Assembly (NCBI RefSeq): GCF_044324875.1
Contig: NZ_CP172185.1
Strand: one strand, 5' to 3'
Length of the DNA stretch: 64,000 nt
DNA from: Escherichia coli
GTDB taxonomy: Bacteria > Pseudomonadota > Gammaproteobacteria > Enterobacterales > Enterobacteriaceae
In this document: piece after piece, positions 7,027 to 39,253 of the stretch
How positions within the stretch are numbered: position 1 is the stretch's first letter
Layout: every line of letters begins with the position of its first letter
Program-made: the position numbers and the translations under genes
The notes under the pieces: model-generated
Database searches by the model: none
What the model was told of the DNA's origin: nothing
The model's input: the letters and a program-made list of their open reading frames with translations, nothing else

Positions 7027-8145
7027 ATGAAATACGATCTCATCATTATTGGCAGCGGTTCCGTAGGCGCTGCCGCCGGGTATTATGCAACCCGTGCCGG
7101 TTTAAACGTGCTAATGACCGACGCCCATATGCCACCACATCAACACGGCAGCCACCACGGCGATACGCGATTAATTCGCCATGCTTATGGTGAAGGCGAA
7201 AAGTATGTCCCGCTGGTTCTCCGCGCGCAAACGCTGTGGGATGAACTCTCCCGCCACAACGAAGAAGATCCCATTTTTGTACGCTCTGGCGTCATTAACC
7301 TTGGCCCGGCTGATTCCACATTTCTCGCCAACGTCGCCCACAGCGCCGAACAATGGCAACTCAACGTTGAAAAGCTCGATGCGCAAGGGATTATGGCCCG
7401 CTGGCCGGAAATACGCGTCCCGGACAACTACATCGGCTTATTTGAGACTGATTCCGGTTTTTTGCGCAGCGAACTGGCGATTAAAACCTGGATCCAACTG
7501 GCGAAGGAAGCGGGCTGTGCGCAGCTGTTCAACTGCCCGGTCACCGCAATTCGTCATGACGATGATGGCGTAACTATTGAAACGGCTGACGGTGATTATC
7601 AGGCGAAAAAAGCGATTGTCTGCGCGGGAACATGGGTAAAAGACCTGCTCCCGGAGCTGCCTGTCCAGCCCGTACGCAAAGTATTTGCCTGGTATCAGGC
7701 CGATGGTCGCTATAGCGTGAAGAATAAATTCCCGGCGTTTACCGGTGAACTGCCCAATGGCGATCAATATTATGGTTTTCCGGCAGAAAACGACGCGTTG
7801 AAGATTGGCAAACATAACGGAGGCCAGGTTATCCATTCAGCGGATGAACGTGTTCCGTTTGCGGAAGTGGTCAGCGATGGTTCGGAAGCCTTCCCGTTCT
7901 TGCGCAATGTATTGCCGGGTATCGGTTGCTGCCTGTACGGCGCTGCCTGCACCTATGATAATTCGCCTGACGAAGATTTTATTATCGATACCCTACCCGA
8001 CCACGATAATACACTGCTCATTACCGGCCTGAGTGGGCACGGTTTTAAATTTGCGTCAGTTTTAGGGGAAATAGCTGCCGATTTTGCGCAAGACAAAAAA
8101 AGCGATTTTGATTTGACGCCATTCAGGCTTTCCCGCTTCCAATAA
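7027..8145 (+). CDS. solA: N-methyl-L-tryptophan oxidase
   Basis: 372-aa ORF with N-terminal FAD-binding GSGSVG motif ([20 protein letters not shown]...). Confidence 0.93.
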
Positions 8146-8165
8146 TCATCATTACGGCCTCCAGA

Positions 8166-8306
8166 ATGAGGCCGTTTTTACAGGAGTATTTAATGCGTCG
8201 GCTGTTGCACTATCTCATCAATAATATTCGCGAGCATCTGATGCTTTATCTTTTTCTCTGGGGATTGTTGGCAATTATGGATCTGATCTATGTGTTTTAT
8301 TTTTAG
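8166..8306 (+). CDS. yceO: small protein YceO
   Basis: 46-codon [49 protein letters not shown] read directly from sequence (below ORF-track size cutoff). Confidence 0.7.
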
Positions 8307-30180: not shown

Positions 30181-31023
30181 CTATACTGCCAGCATGTCAG
30201 GATAGTGTCTGACGATAATATCATTCAGTCTGTCAACCAGTTCCGGTTTCCTGAACGTGATATGCGCGGAGCCTTTCCTGAAGTATCTGATGCTGAACAT
30301 CTCATCCTCATAGCATGCTTCACCCTGAACGGACCGGATGTGCTCATCCAGACGAATGAGGATATTGTCCCGGTCAGTGGGTATGGGTTTACCGCTGAAC
30401 AGATACAGTATCCTTTCCAGGTCGGCAAGCCGCCCGGCCTGCGGACCATGGTTCAGACCAAATCCCCACCAGTCCCATTTCACCAGGTTGTTGAGGATAA
30501 TCTTACTGCCGAATTTACAGGGTGACCCGCTGTTGTGCGTCCGGCTCAGTCCTCTGAAGAGGTTGATGACGCCCCGTTCAGCCATTTCATCCCTGTTACG
30601 GTGCAGTTGTTCAGACGTACTCAGGATATTCGCTTCGCTGATTTCCGGAAAATTATCCTCCTCCAGTGAACGGTACCATTCATCACGCGCCTGTGCATCC
30701 ATCAGACTCAGCATCCCGGAGCGTTGCATCAGGTCACGCCAGATTTCACGGTCAAGGTTCCGGGTGATGGCTTTCATTGCGGTTTCCGGTTTTTCCATCA
30801 GCCAGCAGCCACAGCGAAAATCCTGTTTCACGGCCCAGTCCCGGGCCGTTTTACCTCCGATGCTTTCTGTCATTACTGAGATTTCTGCCAGTTGCCGGAT
30901 AAGCCTTTCGGTTTGTTGCAGTGCTTCATTCCGTACCGTCACAACGTGCCGGATACTGGTTGAGCAGATAACGTCCGTATGTCCGTTAAGCGTTTCCGGA
31001 CGGGAGACTGTGATATCAGACAT
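30181..31023 (-). CDS. conserved island hypothetical protein, 280 aa (possibly DUF4942-type; family not confirmed)
   Basis: Long ORF MSDITVSRPETLNGHTDVICSTSIRHVVTVRNEALQQTERLIRQ... at the tRNA-proximal edge of the island. Confidence 0.55.
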   Translation of the reverse strand: MSDITVSRPETLNGHTDVICSTSIRHVVTVRNEALQQTERLIRQLAEISVMTESIGGKTARDWAVKQDFRCGCWLMEKPETAMKAITRNLDREIWRDLMQRSGMLSLMDAQARDEWYRSLEEDNFPEISEANILSTSEQLHRNRDEMAERGVINLFRGLSRTHNSGSPCKFGSKIILNNLVKWDWWGFGLNHGPQAGRLADLERILYLFSGKPIPTDRDNILIRLDEHIRSVQGEACYEDEMFSIRYFRKGSAHITFRKPELVDRLNDIIVRHYPDMLAV

Positions 31024-31119
31024 AACCGATATTCCTTTTTGCAGATAAATGAAAACGCCAGCCGTATTCGGACTGGCGTCAGTGGAATGAATCGTGGTGA
31101 GTGAGATGATGAGTGAGAC

Positions 31120-31317
31120 TCACAGGTTCTGGTGCTGAAGCTGCAGCTGGCGCAGGGTGCGGATATCCTCCCTGGCCTGTTCGATACAGGGCAACAGTGC
31201 TGCCGAATCCGTTTTATCCTCATCGTTGTCGAAGATAATGCAGGAGCCGCAGTCGATATTGTCCTGCAGCCACGCAATCAGAATATCCGGTGCTGTTTCT
31301 GTGGTTAATGATTTCAT
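31120..31317 (-). CDS. small hypothetical protein (65 aa)
   Basis: C-terminal in-frame part (MKSLTTETAPDILIAWLQDNIDCGSCIIFDNDEDKTD...) of ORF 31120-31704, directly downstream of the yeeW-like gene; no clear SD. Confidence 0.3.
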   Translation of the reverse strand: MKSLTTETAPDILIAWLQDNIDCGSCIIFDNDEDKTDSAALLPCIEQAREDIRTLRQLQLQHQNL

Positions 31318-31336
31318 ACGGTGTCTTTTGTCCCGG

Positions 31337-31825
31337 TTACCAGTCGAAAGTGGGAAAACCCGGCAGACATTCAGCGCCGGCATCCAGATGAATGAGACTG
31401 ACGCCATAACGCCGGATGAGAGTGACAACCAGACGACGAAACGTTTTTGACAGACCCAGGCGTTTAAGCCGCAGAGCCGGGTACGACCACGCATCAGTAC
31501 GTAACAGATATCCGCTGCCTGTAAAATGAATCCATTCTGATTCGCCGTTGTCATTCGTCTGATGCGACAGCGAGTACAGCCAGGCATTGTCCTGCTCCGT
31601 GATATGTGCGGTACTGCAGCGTATGCCGGTAAGGGCCGCAAATGGTGGCATGCAGTCTGCTGAGGTCCGGTCAGATTCATCAGCAACACGAAGGGAACAG
31701 CCATTATCGCAGACCACGTTAATCAGTTCAGCGAGATTAACACCATCGACGTCAGCGACAATGCGCCCCATGTTCAGTGCCTGTACGTTAACGCTGTCGG
31801 CTTCCAGTGTCAGGGACAGTTTCAT
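31337..31825 (-). CDS. YeeW-like protein (162 aa)
   Basis: [31 protein letters not shown]...; start overlaps cbtA stop (ATGA); position equals yeeW in CP4-44-type modules. Confidence 0.5.
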
Positions 31826-32199
31826 GGTTTCACCTCACAGTGTTTACCCAGGGTGATGTTGTTCACCATTCTGTAGTGGCTGCGGGTCATCAGGCCGGTC
31901 GCCCGGCGGGCCCGGAGAATATCAATGCTGCTGATTAACTGCGATGAAGCTCCTGCGCTGAATCCCGGCTGGTCGGTACGCACCAGCGCGTATTTTTCCA
32001 CAAGAAAGTTCACCGCATCACACAGTGAAATACCCGCCTCAATATGCTGCTCAATCACACGTTCATCGGCGAACGGTGTGTCATTCAGCGTGAGGCCGTA
32101 GTGCTGGTCCAGCAGCCGGGTGAGCAGTGTCTGCCAGATTTCAACCGGAGACGGGCAGCGCGATGTTGCCCGTACGTGTGTGTCGGGGAATGTTTTCAT
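31822..32199 (-). CDS. cbtA: CbtA/YeeV-family toxin (cytoskeleton-binding toxin)
   Basis: ORF 31822-32325; internal start [56 protein letters not shown]... closely resembles YeeV. Confidence 0.85.
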
Positions 32200-32257
32200 C
32201 TTAAGTACTCTGTAACAGGTGATGATAAAGAAGTGCTGTCCGGGGTTATGCGGTGGT

Positions 32258-32623
32258 TCAGGGTGTTGCCGGTGTCGGATAAATGGCGATATACACGTAA
32301 CCACAACTGCCGAGGGTGTCGGCATCGCAGGTCAGCCCTTTCGCATACAGTGTCACGGTATGCTGATGGCGGGGACTGAGTTCACCGCTGGTGAGCATGA
32401 GTTCCAGCTGTTTCATCAGCAGCGGAAAGGCCTGGTCCAGGTGGTACGCATCTGCGTCGCTGAACCGGCCTCTGATACCGGCGCGGTCTGCAAGGTAATG
32501 CAGGCGGTTACCCTCCTGCACCAGACGGGCACCGAAACAGGGCGTCACGGTGCAGGGCAGCCCCCACCAGGGGCGGTCGCTGTTGTCGTCAGGATGCGTT
32601 GTCCCGGTGAGTGTGTCTGACAT
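32258..32623 (-). CDS. cbeA: CbeA/YeeU-family antitoxin
   Basis: 121-aa [53 protein letters not shown]... closely resembles YeeU. Confidence 0.85.
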
Positions 32624-32673
32624 GATAAAGTCCTCACTGATAATCGGTTAAGAATGGTTTTAACAATGACGGG

Positions 32674-33318
32674 TCAGCCGGCGCGCAGACCGGCTTCGGT
32701 GAAGGTGTATCCGTTGATGAGAAGGGCCTCATCCACGGCGTCGTCTGAGGTCAGCCAGTCGTACTCGTTTTCCAGTTGACTGTATAACCAGAAGGCAAGG
32801 TCCCGCAGGGCGTCACAGACAACGGTTTCCGCGCTGGCTGTCATTGCCTGTCCGGTCGGACTGTCCCGGGTGACGGTGATATCCATGCTGTACGGATGGC
32901 AGTAGTGTCCCCGGTGGCGGATTTCAGCCTGAAGCTGCCGGAAGTTACGCTTCTGCACCGCCTGCAGGGCATCCGCGATACGATGAAGCTCACGGTCCTG
33001 CGGGGCATATTCCCTGATTTTCCGGGGTGCCGCTGGCTGCCAGCGCCAGCGTCCTTCAAAACAGGCTCCGTCCCCCTGGCTGCAGAATCCGCTGAACCAG
33101 ATGCACGGCTCTTCCATAAACCTGCCGTTGCTGAGCCGGATAACACGCTGGCGGAGGGCAATCCCGACAATCTCACAGACCGTCCTGAAGTCCTCATACA
33201 CGTTTTCATACCAGTTGCTGTCAGCATGATGCTGACGGTACCATTCACGGGCCTTCTCCCGTGCTGTGGCGGAAAGTTCATCCGGCGTATACACGGTGGT
33301 GATGATAATTCTGCTCAT
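32674..33318 (-). CDS. hypothetical protein (about 214 aa) between yeeT-like and cbeA
   Basis: ORF 32674-33330; ATG at 33318 (MSRIIITTVYTPDELSATAREKAREWYRQHH...) with GGAG 6 nt upstream; protein-like composition, overlapping alternative-frame ORFs look non-coding. Confidence 0.55.
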   Translation of the reverse strand: MSRIIITTVYTPDELSATAREKAREWYRQHHADSNWYENVYEDFRTVCEIVGIALRQRVIRLSNGRFMEEPCIWFSGFCSQGDGACFEGRWRWQPAAPRKIREYAPQDRELHRIADALQAVQKRNFRQLQAEIRHRGHYCHPYSMDITVTRDSPTGQAMTASAETVVCDALRDLAFWLYSQLENEYDWLTSDDAVDEALLINGYTFTEAGLRAG

Positions 33319-33334
33319 CCGCATCTCCACTGAC

Positions 33335-33556
33335 TCAGTTCAGGGTGACGCTCATCAGCCGGACATACGGGCCAAAACTGTCCTTCCGGCGTTCGGCAAA
33401 CACGGCAAGCACACCGGGGATATCCTGCACTTCACGACCGGTATACGCTTCAGCACTGCCGTGCCAGCGGTATTTACCGGTACAGAACGGAAAAAGACGG
33501 GATGACGGATACTGACGGTGAACGCGCATGGCTTCACCACGGGTGATGATTTTCAT
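33335..33556 (-). CDS. yeeT: YeeT-like protein (DUF987)
   Basis: 73-aa ORF MKIITRGEAMRVHRQYPSSRLFPFCTGKYRWHGSAEAYTGREVQDIPGVLAVFAERRKD... Confidence 0.8.
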   Translation of the reverse strand: MKIITRGEAMRVHRQYPSSRLFPFCTGKYRWHGSAEAYTGREVQDIPGVLAVFAERRKDSFGPYVRLMSVTLN

Positions 33557-33645
33557 GAGAACAGTCCTCCTGAATGTGAAAGTGAGAAACAGCTGAGAAA
33601 GAGAAACTGAAGTGACAATATGAAGGTGGCTGTGACGGTGACGGA

Positions 33646-34122
33646 TTAAAGCAGACCGTGTTCCGCAAAGGAGAACACCCGGCTGCCACCGACTATCAAA
33701 TGGTCCGGTACCCGGATATCCACCAGGGCCAGTGCCTGTACCAGACGTTCAGTGATAAGGCGGTCTGCCTTACCGGGTGTGACCTCACCGGACGGATGAT
33801 TGTGCGCCAGCACCACGGCAGCGGCATTGTGGTACAGGGCGCGTTTAACCACCTCCCGGGGATGCACTTCCGTGCGGTTGATGGTGCCGGTGAAGAGGGT
33901 TTCACCGGCAATCAGCTGATTCTGGTTGTTCAGGTACAGCACCCGGAACTCTTCCCGCTCCAGTCCCGCCATGTGCAGAATCAGCCATTCCCGTGCCGCA
34001 TGCGTGGAGGTGAAGGCCACGCCGGGTTCATGAAGATGGCGGTCCAGGGTTTTCAGGGCCCGCTGAATGAGGCTGCGCTCGCCGGGCGTCATCGCGCCGG
34101 GCAGAAAGGAAATCTGTTGCAT
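33646..34122 (-). CDS. RadC-like JAB-domain protein (YeeS/YkfG/YfjY family)
   Basis: ORF 33646-34164 with JAMM-like motif HNHPSGEVTPGKADRLITERL. Confidence 0.85.
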   Translation of the reverse strand: MQQISFLPGAMTPGERSLIQRALKTLDRHLHEPGVAFTSTHAAREWLILHMAGLEREEFRVLYLNNQNQLIAGETLFTGTINRTEVHPREVVKRALYHNAAAVVLAHNHPSGEVTPGKADRLITERLVQALALVDIRVPDHLIVGGSRVFSFAEHGLL

Positions 34123-34133
34123 AACCTCACTCC

Positions 34134-34607
34134 TCAGTCGATGATGCGCATAATGGCGCTGCATTCCGGATGCTGCAGGGCGTAATCCCGCAGCCGGTAA
34201 TAATGGACCGTCATGGCATAATGCTCCGTACGGCAGGCGTGATGACTGTAGGCCATCAGGCAGGCGGCAATGCCGGCGGCTTCAGGGCTCATTTCCGCGC
34301 GGTTGCCGTTCATGGTGTTAAACAGTGCCCATGTTTCGTCATCATCGTCACCCGGTTCGGGAGCCATAAATGCGCCGCCGTTGTTCAGGGTGTACATATT
34401 CCAGATACCCCCACTGTAGTCTTCACACAGACGGTCCATCCAGCCGAAGATTCGGGGCTCAAGGGTCACCCACTGCGGAATGAGGCCAAAGTGCTGCGGC
34501 CAGAAGCTGATGCGCTGTTCGTCAGGCACTGGGCTGGCAACCAGCTGAGGTGGATTATTCCCGGATGCAGTGGTTGCGGAAACAGAGTCATGCGAAACCG
34601 TTTTCAT
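34134..34607 (-). CDS. antirestriction protein (YfjX/YafX, KlcA/ArdB-like family)
   Basis: ORF 34134-34709; family-conserved part starts at ATG 34607 (MKTVSHDSVSATTASG...); tail ...HHACRTEHYAMTVHYYRLRDYALQHPECSAIMRIID; upstream ORF extension runs into IS21 DNA. Confidence 0.8.
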   Translation of the reverse strand: MKTVSHDSVSATTASGNNPPQLVASPVPDEQRISFWPQHFGLIPQWVTLEPRIFGWMDRLCEDYSGGIWNMYTLNNGGAFMAPEPGDDDDETWALFNTMNGNRAEMSPEAAGIAACLMAYSHHACRTEHYAMTVHYYRLRDYALQHPECSAIMRIID

Positions 34608-34825
34608 AAGTGAAATCCTTAAGTGCAAAATGGCATCTGAATCGATCGCAGTTTGGCATTCGAATCGATCATGATTTGGCATCCATCTCCGATCACAGTT
34701 TGGCATCACAATCGATCACGATTTGGCATGCTTCCGATCATTGATTGGCATCCTGCCAGTCACTCCGGGAATTAACTCTTTTCACCACAGTCTCCATTGC
34801 CGTGTTTAAACCAGTGGAGACGTCA

Positions 34826-36391
34826 ATGTCCAGAAAGAGAAAATCCAGGAGCACTATGGAAACCTGTTTTAAGATCCTTCAGCTCAAGTTCGACAAGAAG
34901 CTGACTAACCGTTGTATCGGACTGACGTTACACATCAGCGCCTCAACCGTTTTTGAGGTTCTTGCCCGCTTCAAAGCCTCTTCTCTGTCATGGCCATTAC
35001 CTGCTGATATATCCCATGACACGCTGGAGAAACTCATTTTTCCGCCCAAAGACACCTTTGCATCAGAGCTTGTAATGCCTGACATGTTGTACTTCGATAC
35101 GGAAATGAGAAAACCAGGTGTGACGCGGCAACTGTTGTGGATGGAATACAAGGCACAGGCGGGTAACAAAGCGATGGGATACTCGCACTTCTGCCGTTGC
35201 TACCGGGAGTGGAAAAAAACGCGACGTCTCTCCATGCGCCAGGAGCATCGTGCCGGCGAAAAGCTTTTTATCGACTTCTGTGGTCCTACGGTTCCTGTTA
35301 TTAATCCGGACACCGGTGAGATACGCCGCGTGGCAATCTTCGTGGCCGTAATGGGGGCGTCCAACTATACCTACGTTGAAGCGTGCGAAGGTCAGGACAT
35401 GATGTCATGGTTAAATGCCCACAGCCGTTGCCTGACCTTCCTGGGCGGCGTACCGAAGCTGCTCATCCCCGATAACCTCAGAAGCGCAGTGAAAAAGGCC
35501 GATCGATATGAGCCTGTCATCAACGACAGTTATCAGGCACTGGCTGAGCACTATGGCACGGTTATCATCCCGGCCCGACCACGCAAACCTAAAGATAAAC
35601 CAAAAGCAGAAAACGGCGTCCTCATCGTTGAACGATGGCTTCTTGCCCGCATCCGTAATGAAACCTTCCACACGCTCAGGGCGCTGAATGCGCGCCTTAG
35701 GGAGTTACTGACAGACATGAATAACCGGCCAATGAAGGGGTACGGCAATCAAACCCGTGCAGAACGCTTCCGCATACTGGATGCGCCAGCACTCTCTCCG
35801 CTGCCTCTGGCACCTTATGAATACACGGAATACAAAGCTGTGAAGGTTGGCCCTGACTACCACGTTGAATATGCCCGTCACTGGTACTCCGTTCCACACG
35901 AACTGGTCGGTCAGCGTCTGTCACTGAAGGCGGGGCAGTCGGTGGTACAGCTCTGGCACAAGGGGCAGTGTGTGGCGCAACATCCGCGCAGCACACATGA
36001 ATATAAACACACAACCAATCCGCTTCACATGCCAGAGCGCCACCGGCAGCACGGGACATGGACACCGGAACGCCTGATCGAGCAGGGAAAACGTACGGGC
36101 CCGTCCACAGGCCGGGTGGTTGAATCCATGCTGAAGGCAAAACCCCATCCGGAACTGGCTTATCGTGCAGTTCTGGGGCTGCTGGCACTTCAGAAAAAAT
36201 ACGGCCCGGAACGGCTGGAAAAGGCCTGTTACGTTGCCCTGCACTATAACGCCCCTGACAGACGCTTTATCGACAATCTGCTGCGTCACCATCGGGAGAA
36301 CCTGGAGCTTCCATTATCCCGCCAGGGCGAACAACATCCGGCATATGCTTCAGAGCATGAAAACCTGCGTGGTCCGGGCTACTACCACTGA
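34826..36391 (+). CDS. istA: IS21-family transposase IstA
   Basis: Internal ATG of ORF 34745-36391 (MSRKRKSRSTMETCFKILQLKFDKK...) preceded by GGAGA; HTH plus DDE integrase core. Confidence 0.85.
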   Translation: MSRKRKSRSTMETCFKILQLKFDKKLTNRCIGLTLHISASTVFEVLARFKASSLSWPLPADISHDTLEKLIFPPKDTFASELVMPDMLYFDTEMRKPGVTRQLLWMEYKAQAGNKAMGYSHFCRCYREWKKTRRLSMRQEHRAGEKLFIDFCGPTVPVINPDTGEIRRVAIFVAVMGASNYTYVEACEGQDMMSWLNAHSRCLTFLGGVPKLLIPDNLRSAVKKADRYEPVINDSYQALAEHYGTVIIPARPRKPKDKPKAENGVLIVERWLLARIRNETFHTLRALNARLRELLTDMNNRPMKGYGNQTRAERFRILDAPALSPLPLAPYEYTEYKAVKVGPDYHVEYARHWYSVPHELVGQRLSLKAGQSVVQLWHKGQCVAQHPRSTHEYKHTTNPLHMPERHRQHGTWTPERLIEQGKRTGPSTGRVVESMLKAKPHPELAYRAVLGLLALQKKYGPERLEKACYVALHYNAPDRRFIDNLLRHHRENLELPLSRQGEQHPAYASEHENLRGPGYYH

Positions 36392-36407
36392 CAGAAGGAA
36401 CAACAGT

Positions 36408-37163
36408 ATGAGTGATAACCTGTTAAACAAACTGACCCAACTGAAACTCCCGGCGATGGCCGGGAGCCTGATACGGCAGCGGGAAACGCCTCAGACCTAC
36501 GACGAACTGTCGTTCGAGGAAAGGCTGACGCTGCTGGTTGATGACGAGCTTCTGAGCAGGGAAAACAGCCGTGTGGCACGGTTGAGAAAAAATGCCGGCC
36601 TGAAATACCAGGCAACACCGGAAGGGCTGCGCTATCCGGCCTCAAGAGGTCTGCGGGCTGAACAGATGAGAGAACTGCTGAACGGCCACTACATAACCCA
36701 CAGGAAAAACCTGCTGATAACCGGTCCGACAGGATGTGGCAAGAGCTGGATAGCCAATGCGCTGGGCGAACAGGCATGTCGACAGAAACACAGCGTCCGG
36801 TACTGTAGAACCGGGCGATTACTGGAACAACTGGCTCAGGGACGTGTTGATGGCAGCTGGCTGAAATATCTGAAACAGTTGCAAAAAATACAGGTTCTAA
36901 TCCTGGACGATCTGGGGCTGGAACAGTTAAGTAACGCCCAGTGTAATGACCTTCTGGAGCTCATAGAGGATCGTTACGGACAAAGCAGCACGATAGTGGT
37001 AAGCCAGTTCCCGGTAGATAAATGGCATGGTCTGATGGAGAACCCAACAACAGCAGATGCCATCCTGGACAGACTGGTACATAACTCACACCGAGTGGTC
37101 CTTCAGGGAGAGTCACTGAGGAAAAATCCCCCGGTAGTGGAAAGCAGCGAAAAAACGCGTTAA
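36408..37163 (+). CDS. istB: IS21-family helper ATPase IstB
   Basis: Internal ATG of ORF 36165-37163 (MSDNLLNKLTQLKLPAMAG...); Walker A GPTGCGKS. Confidence 0.85.
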   Translation: MSDNLLNKLTQLKLPAMAGSLIRQRETPQTYDELSFEERLTLLVDDELLSRENSRVARLRKNAGLKYQATPEGLRYPASRGLRAEQMRELLNGHYITHRKNLLITGPTGCGKSWIANALGEQACRQKHSVRYCRTGRLLEQLAQGRVDGSWLKYLKQLQKIQVLILDDLGLEQLSNAQCNDLLELIEDRYGQSSTIVVSQFPVDKWHGLMENPTTADAILDRLVHNSHRVVLQGESLRKNPPVVESSEKTR

Positions 37164-37262
37164 AAAGCGGTAGAAAAAGTTAAGTTCCCGGTTGATCGAA
37201 TGGATGCGAATCGCTGATCGGACTTCGATGCCAATCCGTGATCGAATAGAGCGGAATACGCA

Positions 37263-37330
37263 CTTAAGTGAATAAGTGAACAAGTGAATTAAGGAAATAA
37301 GTGAATGAATAAGTGAATAAGAGAGAAAAG
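37263..37330. repeat. tandem array of 8-bp AAGTGAAT-like units
   Basis: cttaagtgaataagtgaacaagtgaattaaggaaataagtgaatgaataagtgaataag; one more unit (aagtgaaat) lies on the other side of the IS21 element at 34609-34617. Confidence 0.7.
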
Positions 37331-37356
37331 ACAGGGCACTGACAGCGTCGCGTTAA

Positions 37357-38175
37357 TCAGCGCAGGCTCTCCAGCAGCGTTTCCGTCATCACCCACAATG
37401 CGCGGTTGAGCTTAATGTCGGTGTCAATGCTGTGAATGGCCCGGGTGTGGATACGTTTTCCTTTTGCACTGCGCCCCTGAAGACCACCCTTGAGCATATT
37501 CTCCTGGATGGTCTGATAAGCACTCCACAGGTCCTTACCGTAATCCTCCCGGCGTCGTGGCGTCAGAATGTCAGCGGTGGTGACGGGCTGATGTTCGTCA
37601 CCATAACGGTAAGTCAGGGCGGCCTGTGCCAGCGCTTGGCGAGCCGGTGGTGGTAAAATCAGCGACTGCATGGCATCACGCTTCTCCTCAATCCGGTCAA
37701 AAACCCCCACCACTTCGTAAGCCCCTTCGATGACCCTGTCCACCACGTTTCCCCGGTGTGGCACACGCACCTCTCCGAGAGACTGACCGCAGACGCACCC
37801 GTTCTGACACACGAACCGGAAGTAACCCGGCAGCATCTGGTAGCTGGAGGTACCGTCATGGGAGTTGAGCAGAATGATTTCCGGGACATGCTGCCCGTTT
37901 ATCTCCCCGTCACGGCGCAGACGCAGCATGTGCTTTGTGTATCCCCGACGTCCCGGGTCCCGCACGCGGGTCTGGCAGGCAAAGAAGGGCTGAAAGCCTT
38001 CCCGCTGCAGGCTTTCCAGCACGGTAATGGTGGGGATGTATGTATAGTTCCGGCTCCGGGAGGTGTGCTTATCTTCCCCGAAAATCCCGGGCACATGGTG
38101 CATCAGTTCTTCATGTGTCAGCGGACGGTCACGGCGTATCTGGTTCGCATAACCAAAACGACTGGCTAATCGCAT
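37357..38175 (-). CDS. DUF932/UPF0380 family protein (YfjQ/YafZ-like)
   Basis: 272-aa ORF MRLASRFGYANQIRRDRPLTHEELMHHVPGIFGEDKHTSRSRNYTYIPTITVLESLQREGFQPFF... Confidence 0.7.
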   Translation of the reverse strand: MRLASRFGYANQIRRDRPLTHEELMHHVPGIFGEDKHTSRSRNYTYIPTITVLESLQREGFQPFFACQTRVRDPGRRGYTKHMLRLRRDGEINGQHVPEIILLNSHDGTSSYQMLPGYFRFVCQNGCVCGQSLGEVRVPHRGNVVDRVIEGAYEVVGVFDRIEEKRDAMQSLILPPPARQALAQAALTYRYGDEHQPVTTADILTPRRREDYGKDLWSAYQTIQENMLKGGLQGRSAKGKRIHTRAIHSIDTDIKLNRALWVMTETLLESLR

Positions 38176-38699
38176 ACTTTGCTCCTTATCAGTGGTTAAG
38201 ACTGACTGACGTAATCAATGAAAAAGCCGCGTCTCCCGGAGAAGACGCGGCCTGATGGATGAAATGAATGAGGGTTTACCGAAGTCCTTCAGCATTGAGG
38301 TGAAGCCGCCGGAAATGTGTTCCCGGGTCATCTTCGATAAATACATTGCGGTAAGCTGTTATGGCAGAAACCGCCTGCACGTGTGAGAAAGGTCTTCGCT
38401 TAAGACGTACTCTGTGTGATCCGGTATTTCTGGTTTCTCCTGATTAATAGCCTCTGCCACAAAGTGTGGAAGAGGCTGAATCATGGTATTTACTTCTTTC
38501 ATCATGGTGGTATTCCGGTGTATTAACCGGGATCTGATTCCGGAAAATAAGGAATAAACGTAAAGGAGCAGAATGCTCGTTATGCCAGACACGCAGGGGG
38601 TAATGCCTCTTCCGGGTGGTTAACCATATTGCCGGGATGTGATGCTTCATATTCCATAACAGAGCGTTGCCTGATGATACTGACTACCAGTGGTTTGAT

Positions 38700-38927
38700 T
38701 CACATATTGGTCGCTGCCCGTTGCTGTACGCCGGCGGCGAAAATGATCTCCAGAGCATTCTGATCGATAACACGGGCCAGATTCGCGTTCAGATTTTCAG
38801 TTTCATTTTCGGTCAGCAGGAAACTGACGGCAAGCCACGTCACCTGCTCCTGAATCATGGCAGGAATTTTGATGCGCTCCTCTTCAGCCAGAGTACCGGC
38901 AATTTTTCCTGATACCACTGCAATCAT
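38700..38927 (-). CDS. hypothetical small protein (75 aa)
   Basis: ORF MIAVVSGKIAGTLAEEERIKIPAMIQEQ...; start overlaps stop of upstream 76-aa ORF by 4 bp. Confidence 0.3.
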   Translation of the reverse strand: MIAVVSGKIAGTLAEEERIKIPAMIQEQVTWLAVSFLLTENETENLNANLARVIDQNALEIIFAAGVQQRAATNM

Positions 38928-39154
38928 TCCTCCCGGAACGCCGCCCGCCAGCGAATATGAAATAACCGGGGTATGCGTTCAGTGATACAGCCAGCCAGTA
39001 AAGCCGGACCGGACAGACACAGCAATATGAGTCCTGCCAGCACAGACGCTGTGCTGGTTAATGCTCTGAACAAAAAGCGAAGAATGGCAAATCCTGCGAT
39101 AAGCAGGATCAGCACGCCGACTATCTGTAACATAGTCCCCCTGATAAATATCAT
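38924..39154 (-). CDS. hypothetical small membrane protein (76 aa)
   Basis: ORF with two hydrophobic segments (LQIVGVLILLIAGFAILRFLF, ASVLAGLILLCLSGPALLAGC) immediately downstream of flu. Confidence 0.3.
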   Translation of the reverse strand: MIFIRGTMLQIVGVLILLIAGFAILRFLFRALTSTASVLAGLILLCLSGPALLAGCITERIPRLFHIRWRAAFREE

Positions 39155-39253
39155 GTTATTGTTAATGCCAGCGAATGTGGCGTTGAATATCCGTTGCGCC
39201 GGTCCGGGTCCCGATCATGATGACCGGGACCACAAAGAGGCAATGCAGAATTG

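Follow-up and report, generated by a model that had tools for sequence, protein, structure and literature searches.

The subject of this report is a gene of the DUF8835 family in a 64,000-nt stretch of Escherichia coli DNA (NCBI RefSeq assembly GCF_044324875.1, contig NZ_CP172185.1), referred to below as the window. The gene lies in a CP4-type island between a yeeT-like gene and the toxin-antitoxin (TA) genes cbeA and cbtA. With moderate confidence, its product is regarded as an entry or establishment factor of mobile elements and a candidate anti-defence protein, independent of the TA pair. Among the roles suggested in a preliminary description of this DNA (regulator, additional anti-defence or addiction function), anti-defence gave the best fit to the wider distribution of the family.

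The open reading frame (ORF) runs on the minus strand from an ATG at 33318 to a stop codon at 32674-32676, and its 214-aa product contains both peptides quoted in the preliminary description, CIWFSGFCSQGDGACFEGRWRW and RHRGHYCHPY. A Shine-Dalgarno sequence judged good, GGAG, is located 6 nt 5' of the ATG, and 16 nt separate the ATG from the stop of the yeeT-like gene. An alternative in-frame GTG at 33330 would add 4 residues; the RefSeq start is ATG 33318. Because local GC content is about 60% and competing ORFs of 145-146 aa are present in two other frames, ORF length alone was weak proof of a gene, and the 214-aa frame was taken as coding on homology and selection. Among the frames of this stretch, only the 214-aa frame had homologues (3,121 at E≤1e-3), and the homologue search returned 60-64% identical proteins from Salmonella and many Alphaproteobacteria. 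Pairwise dN/dS of five E. coli copies was 0.16-0.40 (pooled, 0.32). The 214-codon ORF is a genuine gene: the claim of a real co-directional ORF with a good Shine-Dalgarno sequence was confirmed, and homologues and dN/dS favoured this frame over a non-coding alternative.

The family is already catalogued and common and is not a new discovery. In complete RefSeq genomes of E. coli, the gene was found at 2,830 places in 1,967 of 5,426 genomes, with the copies labelled 'hypothetical protein', 'DUF8835 domain-containing protein' or 'antitoxin of toxin-antitoxin stability system' (e.g. WP_045145966.1). The window protein matched phrog_5162 (function unknown) over residues 3-210 with E=1.3e-34. The statement that no family could be recognised therefore holds for characterised families, none of which fits, but not for catalogued ones (DUF8835, PHROG 5162). 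A profile search of 1.84 billion representatives returned 6,084 clusters (50% identity) at E≤1e-3 and 1,032 at E≤1e-30, and nearly all of the best 150 of the listed matches were single-domain proteins of about 200-225 aa. All family-wide motifs (E14, L15, D43, G52, Q81-G-D83-G-A, F87, G89, D108, H141, W177, Y179, N202, F206 and G210) are present in the window protein. One match in a fungal assembly, a 969-aa 'DUF4326 domain-containing protein' (62% identity), was not counted as a domain fusion, since a eukaryotic gene caller has probably merged contaminating bacterial sequence into it. Pfam-A gave no match even at E≤10 for the window protein and 124 diverse members (the release evidently holds no DUF8835 model), NCBIfam gave none for the window protein, and PADLOC-DB yielded 0 families for this protein and its 6 neighbours.

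Genome context was analysed in the 80 best genome loci, almost all of them alphaproteobacterial. Here, the gene is part of a co-directional block of ArdC (ArdcN plus zincin peptidase), DUF2958, RadC, a ParB_N protein of about 700 aa, a 138-aa ORF and DUF8835. The block continues 3' with a 1,440-aa AAA_34/ResIII/Helicase_C_4 'strawberry notch-like' protein (present in 75 of the 80 loci), DUF7146-Toprim and YAcAr/DUF2493. The 138-aa ORF overlaps the DUF8835 start in 74 of the 76 loci for which upstream sequence exists; the overlap is 8 nt (locus L002, 7592-8008, and 74 other alphaproteobacterial loci). The product of the 138-aa ORF carries the motifs YFTHFSC and GLWGFxYAxxCSxPxxDxFGGGAH and had no Pfam, PHROG or PDB match. 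It was also tested as a hidden YeeT or CbeA homologue and rejected, with no relation to either; it is a possible partner of the DUF8835 protein. On Haematobacter plasmid pOT1-2, the genes after this block are RepA, ParA, a TraF-like peptidase, a DUF3363 protein that is probably the relaxase, TraG and trbB-I, a backbone which we take to be of the conjugative Tn4371 type (MOBP, MPF_T). A DUF8835 match was found in 108 plasmid records, 41 of which were typed as conjugative. A metagenomic contig provided a further context, with RadC upstream of the DUF8835 gene. RadC and an antirestriction gene (KlcA-type or ArdC) are near DUF8835 in both gamma- and alphaproteobacterial contexts, and on conjugative or integrative elements the gene forms co-directional clusters with genes of the antirestriction, RadC and ParB types.

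The conjugative element with the DUF8835 block has defence cargo at both flanks (pOT1-2, 27229-43593; locus L012, 1-2955): a complete BREX type 1 system at one and SIR2 plus AbiEii at the other. In the actinobacterial assembly of Enemella evansiae (locus L079, 1196-10246), the 138-aa ORF, DUF8835, helicase, Toprim and YAcAr genes are 78-92% identical to the alphaproteobacterial element; the explanation is contamination or a transfer between phyla that took place very recently.

DUF8835 homologues with 24-38% identity were found in 59 phage records. In Caulobacter phiCbK-like jumbo phages the gene is located inside the annotated terminal repeats. Among RaK2-like phages, it is gene 006 of the Klebsiella jumbo phage Muenster, 3 kb from the left end and within a 20-kb terminal repeat; it lies in the direct terminal repeat of fENko-Kae01 and 2 kb from the record start of Salmonella phage Munch. 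Further carriers include Acinetobacter Saclayvirus phages and Pseudomonas phage Lana with its relatives; in Lana and Acinetobacter phage CP14, the two examined, the gene forms part of an extended series of small hypothetical genes. Two phage-like metagenome contigs (57 and 62 kb) have DUF8835 at most about 1 kb from the contig end, where it heads a row of small genes that continues to the DNA polymerase or DnaA-like genes. Genes at phage genome ends are typically early host-takeover or anti-defence genes, such as T7 gene 0.3 (ocr) and the T5 pre-early region, and by analogy the end-located DUF8835 phage genes may have such a role. The label 'RNA polymerase binding protein' on one Acinetobacter phage homologue stands inside a run of implausible annotations on tiny ORFs.

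For structure prediction, AlphaFold2 (AF2) was used with a 20-sequence alignment (pLDDT 82, pTM 0.77; two of five models were poor). In the predicted alpha/beta fold, a pair of N-terminal helices precedes a six-stranded antiparallel region; two further helices, a beta-hairpin and a long helix follow, and a short strand with a helix makes up the C-terminus. The product is a globular, stand-alone protein of about 210 aa. Conservation was determined over 130 representatives 36-60% identical to the window protein, with residues called conserved at ≥85%. These were E14, D43, G77-F78, Q81-G-D83-G-A85, F87, G89, P106, D108, Y139, H141, R172 and N202 plus core hydrophobics; most conserved positions are glycines and polar residues in predicted loops, a pattern suggestive of a metal- or ligand-binding pocket. 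A Cys/His metal site, as might be read from the Cys/His-containing sequence pointed out in the preliminary description, was rejected as regards Cys, as C72 and C86 are replaced in distant members; H141 is conserved. The family is acidic and rich in aromatic residues (median pI 4.77, median net charge -17, Trp+Tyr+Phe 12.5%), so that a decoy-type binding mechanism is possible as well; the window protein is less acidic (pI 5.55, net -6). PDB sequence and profile searches returned chance matches only, all with E of at least 0.1.

As an establishment factor, the DUF8835 protein would be made early, at the time when element DNA reaches a new cell, whether through conjugation, transfer of an island or injection by a phage. 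It would then neutralise or exploit a conserved host component, most plausibly one of defence or DNA surveillance. This action would be carried either by the conserved polar loop cluster (E14, D43, S-Q81-G-D83-G-A, P106-x-D108, Y139-x-H141, R172 and N202) or by an acidic surface, and an enzyme or ligand pocket may be rated slightly above an acidic decoy. In CP4-type islands, the gene would be an ancestral and dispensable member of the operon antirestriction-RadC-YeeT-DUF8835-CbeA-CbtA, decaying once the island is resident. It has been reported that the F-plasmid secretion system moves the CP4-module proteins YfjX, CbeA, YagB and YfjZ into recipients (PMC11288057) and that CbtA domains are found in polyvalent proteins of conjugative elements (PMC5512222); both are consistent with descent of the CP4 operon from a conjugative-element establishment cluster. 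A more specific proposal, made only tentatively, is a new-fold anti-defence or host-takeover protein (an enzyme, ligand or decoy binder) built around D43/QGDG/PxD/YxH and common to integrative islands, Tn4371-type elements and the first-injected ends of phages from several unrelated groups. The host target would in that case be conserved from Alpha- to Gammaproteobacteria.

The window locus was annotated by means of 100%-identical, RefSeq-annotated DNA of E. coli TUM9803. The order there is DUF932, antirestriction, RadC, DUF987, DUF8835, YeeU-family antitoxin, CbtA-family toxin, DUF5983, DUF957, DUF4942, tRNA-Ser and ghrA. The features of the window are as follows.

34134-34607, minus strand: antirestriction gene of the KlcA/ArdB type, PF03230 family (phrog_10132 'anti-restriction protein', E=1.6e-61; RefSeq; PF03230 on the homologous gene).
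33646-34122, minus strand: RadC-like JAB-domain gene, YeeS-like (NCBIfam TIGR00608, 146 bits, above cut-off; RefSeq).
33335-33556, minus strand: DUF987 (YeeT-like) gene, directly upstream of the DUF8835 gene (identical RefSeq locus; phrog_14887).
33319-33334, minus strand: 16-nt spacer with the GGAG Shine-Dalgarno sequence, 3' of the yeeT-like stop (read from the sequence).
32674-33318, minus strand: DUF8835-family gene, 214 aa, PHROG 5162 (ORF, identical RefSeq DNA, phrog_5162, homologues, dN/dS).
32258-32623, minus strand: YeeU/CbeA-family type IV antitoxin, 50 nt downstream of the DUF8835 gene (RefSeq; PF06154 on homologous loci).
31822-32199, minus strand: CbtA-family toxin (RefSeq; PF06755 on homologous loci).
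31337-31825, minus strand: DUF5983 (YeeW-like) gene (RefSeq).
31120-31317, minus strand: small DUF957 gene (coordinates carried over from the identical RefSeq locus, 8002-8199 there).
30181-31023, minus strand: DUF4942 (methyltransferase-like) gene, the last island gene before tRNA-Ser (RefSeq; phrog_6263 'DNA methyltransferase', E=1.9e-16).
29941-30028, plus strand: tRNA-Ser(GGA), the island attachment side beside ghrA (ARAGORN; RefSeq).

The placement of the gene between yeeT-like and cbeA/cbtA, co-directional with them, thus agrees with the identical RefSeq locus and with Pfam assignments on homologous loci. Degradation of the island is plain to see. The antirestriction gene and DUF932 (37357-38175), which adjoin in the otherwise identical RefSeq locus, are separated here by an element of the IS21 family (istA transposase, then istB helper ATPase, 34745-37163). 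The Ag43/Cah autotransporter gene (region 39254-43951) is broken into an N-terminal ORF at 41501-42373 and a C-terminal ORF at 39254-41485, and an IS66-family transposase gene (42413-43951) is located just upstream of the split gene.

According to the preliminary description, K-12 modules run directly from the yeeT-like gene to the antitoxin, and the gene in the window is an extra one. The first part is accurate for CP4-44, CP4-57 and CP4-6. In CP4-44 of MG1655, yeeT is followed by cbeA across a 73-nt spacer (NC_000913.3, 2077039-2077111). This spacer opens with ATGAGCAGAATTATCGCCACTACC, which encodes MSRIIATT, the first 8 codons of the DUF8835 gene, and these codons are fused directly to the last ~40 nt of the DUF8835-to-cbeA spacer of intact loci, leaving a remnant ORF of 16 codons. 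From its sequence, the CP4-44 spacer is the scar of a clean internal deletion of ~640 bp. The second part was not supported: as the scar keeps the 8 initial codons, the gene is ancestral to the module and was lost from K-12 CP4-44; it is not an insertion. No DUF8835 remnant is left in CP4-57 and CP4-6, where the DUF987 gene joins the antitoxin gene tightly. The 151-nt K-12 junction was present at ≥80% coverage in 3,494 of the 5,426 genomes, so that the deleted allele is the usual state of CP4-44. Counted module-wide at megablast sensitivity, the 2,830 places with DUF8835 compare with 12,911 for the yeeT-like gene and 12,631 for the cbeA-like gene, which puts the DUF8835 gene in roughly a fifth (~22%) of CP4-type modules.

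These data bear on the alternative that the gene, once useful to an ancestral element, is a decaying passenger in E. coli. Its dN/dS of 0.32 exceeds that of six neighbouring genes (0.08-0.23), with DUF4942 at 0.29 from a single pair. One sampled E. coli copy (locus L016) contains 2 internal stops beside intact cbeA and cbtA; at another locus, an intact DUF8835 copy lies beside a frameshifted cbtA. Fragments are frequent among the database homologues, as are deletion chimeras with antirestriction or DUF5983 genes. Such truncation, the scar fixed in CP4-44 and the damage to the window island by IS21/IS66 insertions and the split of Ag43 all speak for decay. However, at 0.32 the dN/dS is still a sign of purifying selection, ~1,940 E. 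coli genomes have full-length copies, and the window itself holds an intact copy preceded by a good ribosome-binding site. As a full account, the passenger alternative is considered unlikely; since it describes the state in E. coli and not the function of the family, it is compatible with an establishment role.

Somewhat less probable still is a role as an accessory of the CbtA/CbeA pair, whether as a second antitoxin, a CbeA chaperone or adaptor, or an operon regulator. Its strongest argument is position: cbeA adjoins the DUF8835 gene in all enterobacterial loci examined, in two different orders. The order YeeT-DUF8835-CbeA-CbtA is found in two E. coli lineages only 63% identical, the second of which keeps YeeT-DUF8835-CbeA. 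Salmonella (including a 354-member cluster), S. diarizonae and Mixta share another order, DUF987, CbeA, (CbeA), DUF8835, CbtA; a 4-nt overlap links the cbeA stop with the DUF8835 ATG in Salmonella and Mixta (L028, 7633-9086; L110, 4094-6081; L091, 7645-9076). Upstream of the gene, Salmonella locus L110 carries two CbeA genes annotated as paralogues; in L028 there is, besides CbeA, a divergent CbeA-like ORF. Natural read-through fusions to CbeA are a further argument. They occur in E. coli assemblies as proteins of 342-343 aa with PF06154 and a 7-residue linker, LPEDFIV, and are found in several clusters, each a singleton; some of the fusion proteins are on several contigs.

Against an accessory role, no sequence or profile relation to CbeA was detected: hhalign of the DUF8835 profile with the neighbouring CbeA gave a probability of 0.2%, and no Pfam PF06154 match was obtained. 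The same value (0.2%) was obtained with the KlcA-type neighbour, and DUF5983 and the alphaproteobacterial 138-aa protein likewise showed no relation. CbtA/CbeA genes accompany DUF8835 in 2 of the best 80 genome loci, namely the two enterobacterial ones, and were absent from the plasmid and phage contexts examined. The abundance of the family in alphaproteobacterial integrative and conjugative elements and plasmids and in lytic phages, with no CbtA/CbeA nearby, makes a role tied to the TA pair unlikely. So does the state of the modules themselves, in that roughly four modules in five do without the gene and the TA pair is found intact in its absence or, at L016, beside its pseudogene. The CbtA/CbeA pair of K-12 CP4-44, where DUF8835 is deleted, is the experimentally characterised type IV system (PMC5371832). 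The regulator or addiction role with CbtA/CbeA suggested earlier is disfavoured on the same grounds. AF2 prediction on the concatenation of DUF8835 and CbeA (natural fusions plus paired sequences) gave pLDDT 37 and pTM 0.27 and was uninformative either way.

That the protein is a defence or toxin component, e.g. an abortive-infection effector of the island, is very improbable: the island context includes a toxin and the Haematobacter plasmid neighbourhood holds SIR2, AbiEii and BREX, but PADLOC gave no match, the gene is carried at genome ends of virulent phages, i.e. on the attacker's side, and its contiguous, co-directional neighbours are antirestriction genes and not the defence cassettes.

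The name 'antitoxin' for DUF8835 proteins is unsupported, given that there is no Pfam, NCBIfam or PADLOC match, no profile likeness to CbeA and no paper behind it. Besides RefSeq, UniProt and AFDB also label homologues 'Antitoxin of the YeeV-YeeU toxin-antitoxin system'. The read-through fusions to CbeA and the Salmonella position directly upstream of cbtA, the usual place of the antitoxin, may explain the name. It has since reached phages: gene 006 of phage Muenster (3055-3666) was called a 'YeeU-like antitoxin' solely from a BLAST match to the mislabelled E. coli protein, as was the homologue of phage K64-1; this origin of the phage label counts against the accessory role.

Several points weigh against an establishment function independent of the TA pair. 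The recurrent adjacency to cbeA is the main one; it is the chief point in favour of a TA link and is not fully explained. The alphaproteobacterial loci are 76-86% identical and belong to a single element family, and their synteny thus counts for approximately one observation. Early expression is inferred from position alone, and a location in the leading region of the conjugative elements, as judged relative to oriT, is no more than a possibility. In full-text literature searches, no paper on the DUF8835 family or its function was found.

The family comprises ~6,000 clusters and occupies a typical counter-defence position; it has neither a fold match nor a study, and carries a misleading name that is spreading into phage annotations. 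Relabelling matters for toxin-antitoxin censuses of E. coli and Salmonella. Loss by deletion in K-12 explains why the gene was never studied in the model strain. Should DUF8835 indeed disarm a conserved function of the host, the family would represent a widely distributed new anti-defence protein.

Among known systems, the CbeA/YeeU antitoxin (PF06154) has the operon, the adjacency, the occasional read-through fusion and the 'antitoxin' label in common with the DUF8835 protein. It differs in sequence and profile and in size (~120 aa versus 214 aa), and the DUF8835 gene is widely found without CbtA and is dispensable for the TA pair. Classical antitoxins (RelB/ParD/Phd-like) were rejected as relatives: the 214-aa protein, predicted to be alpha/beta, had no RHH, HTH, AbrB or Phd domain in Pfam or NCBIfam. 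The best structural neighbour, the Aha1 N-terminal domain, scored below homology level and covered less than half of the protein at 9% identity. ArdA, KlcA/ArdB, ArdC and T7 Ocr occur in the same setting, with KlcA-type or ArdC genes and RadC on elements and at phage genome ends, and the acidity of the DUF8835 family resembles that of DNA mimics. However, DUF8835 has no homology to any of them (Pfam, 124 diverse members), and its conserved Gly/Asp/His loops look pocket-like rather than like the surface of a DNA mimic. With its DUF8835/PHROG 5162 relatives, the window protein has full-length homology and shares the SQGDGA loop, PxD, YxH and the C-terminal NxYxFTxxG; its sole distinction from the family is its lower acidity (net -6 versus a median of -17).

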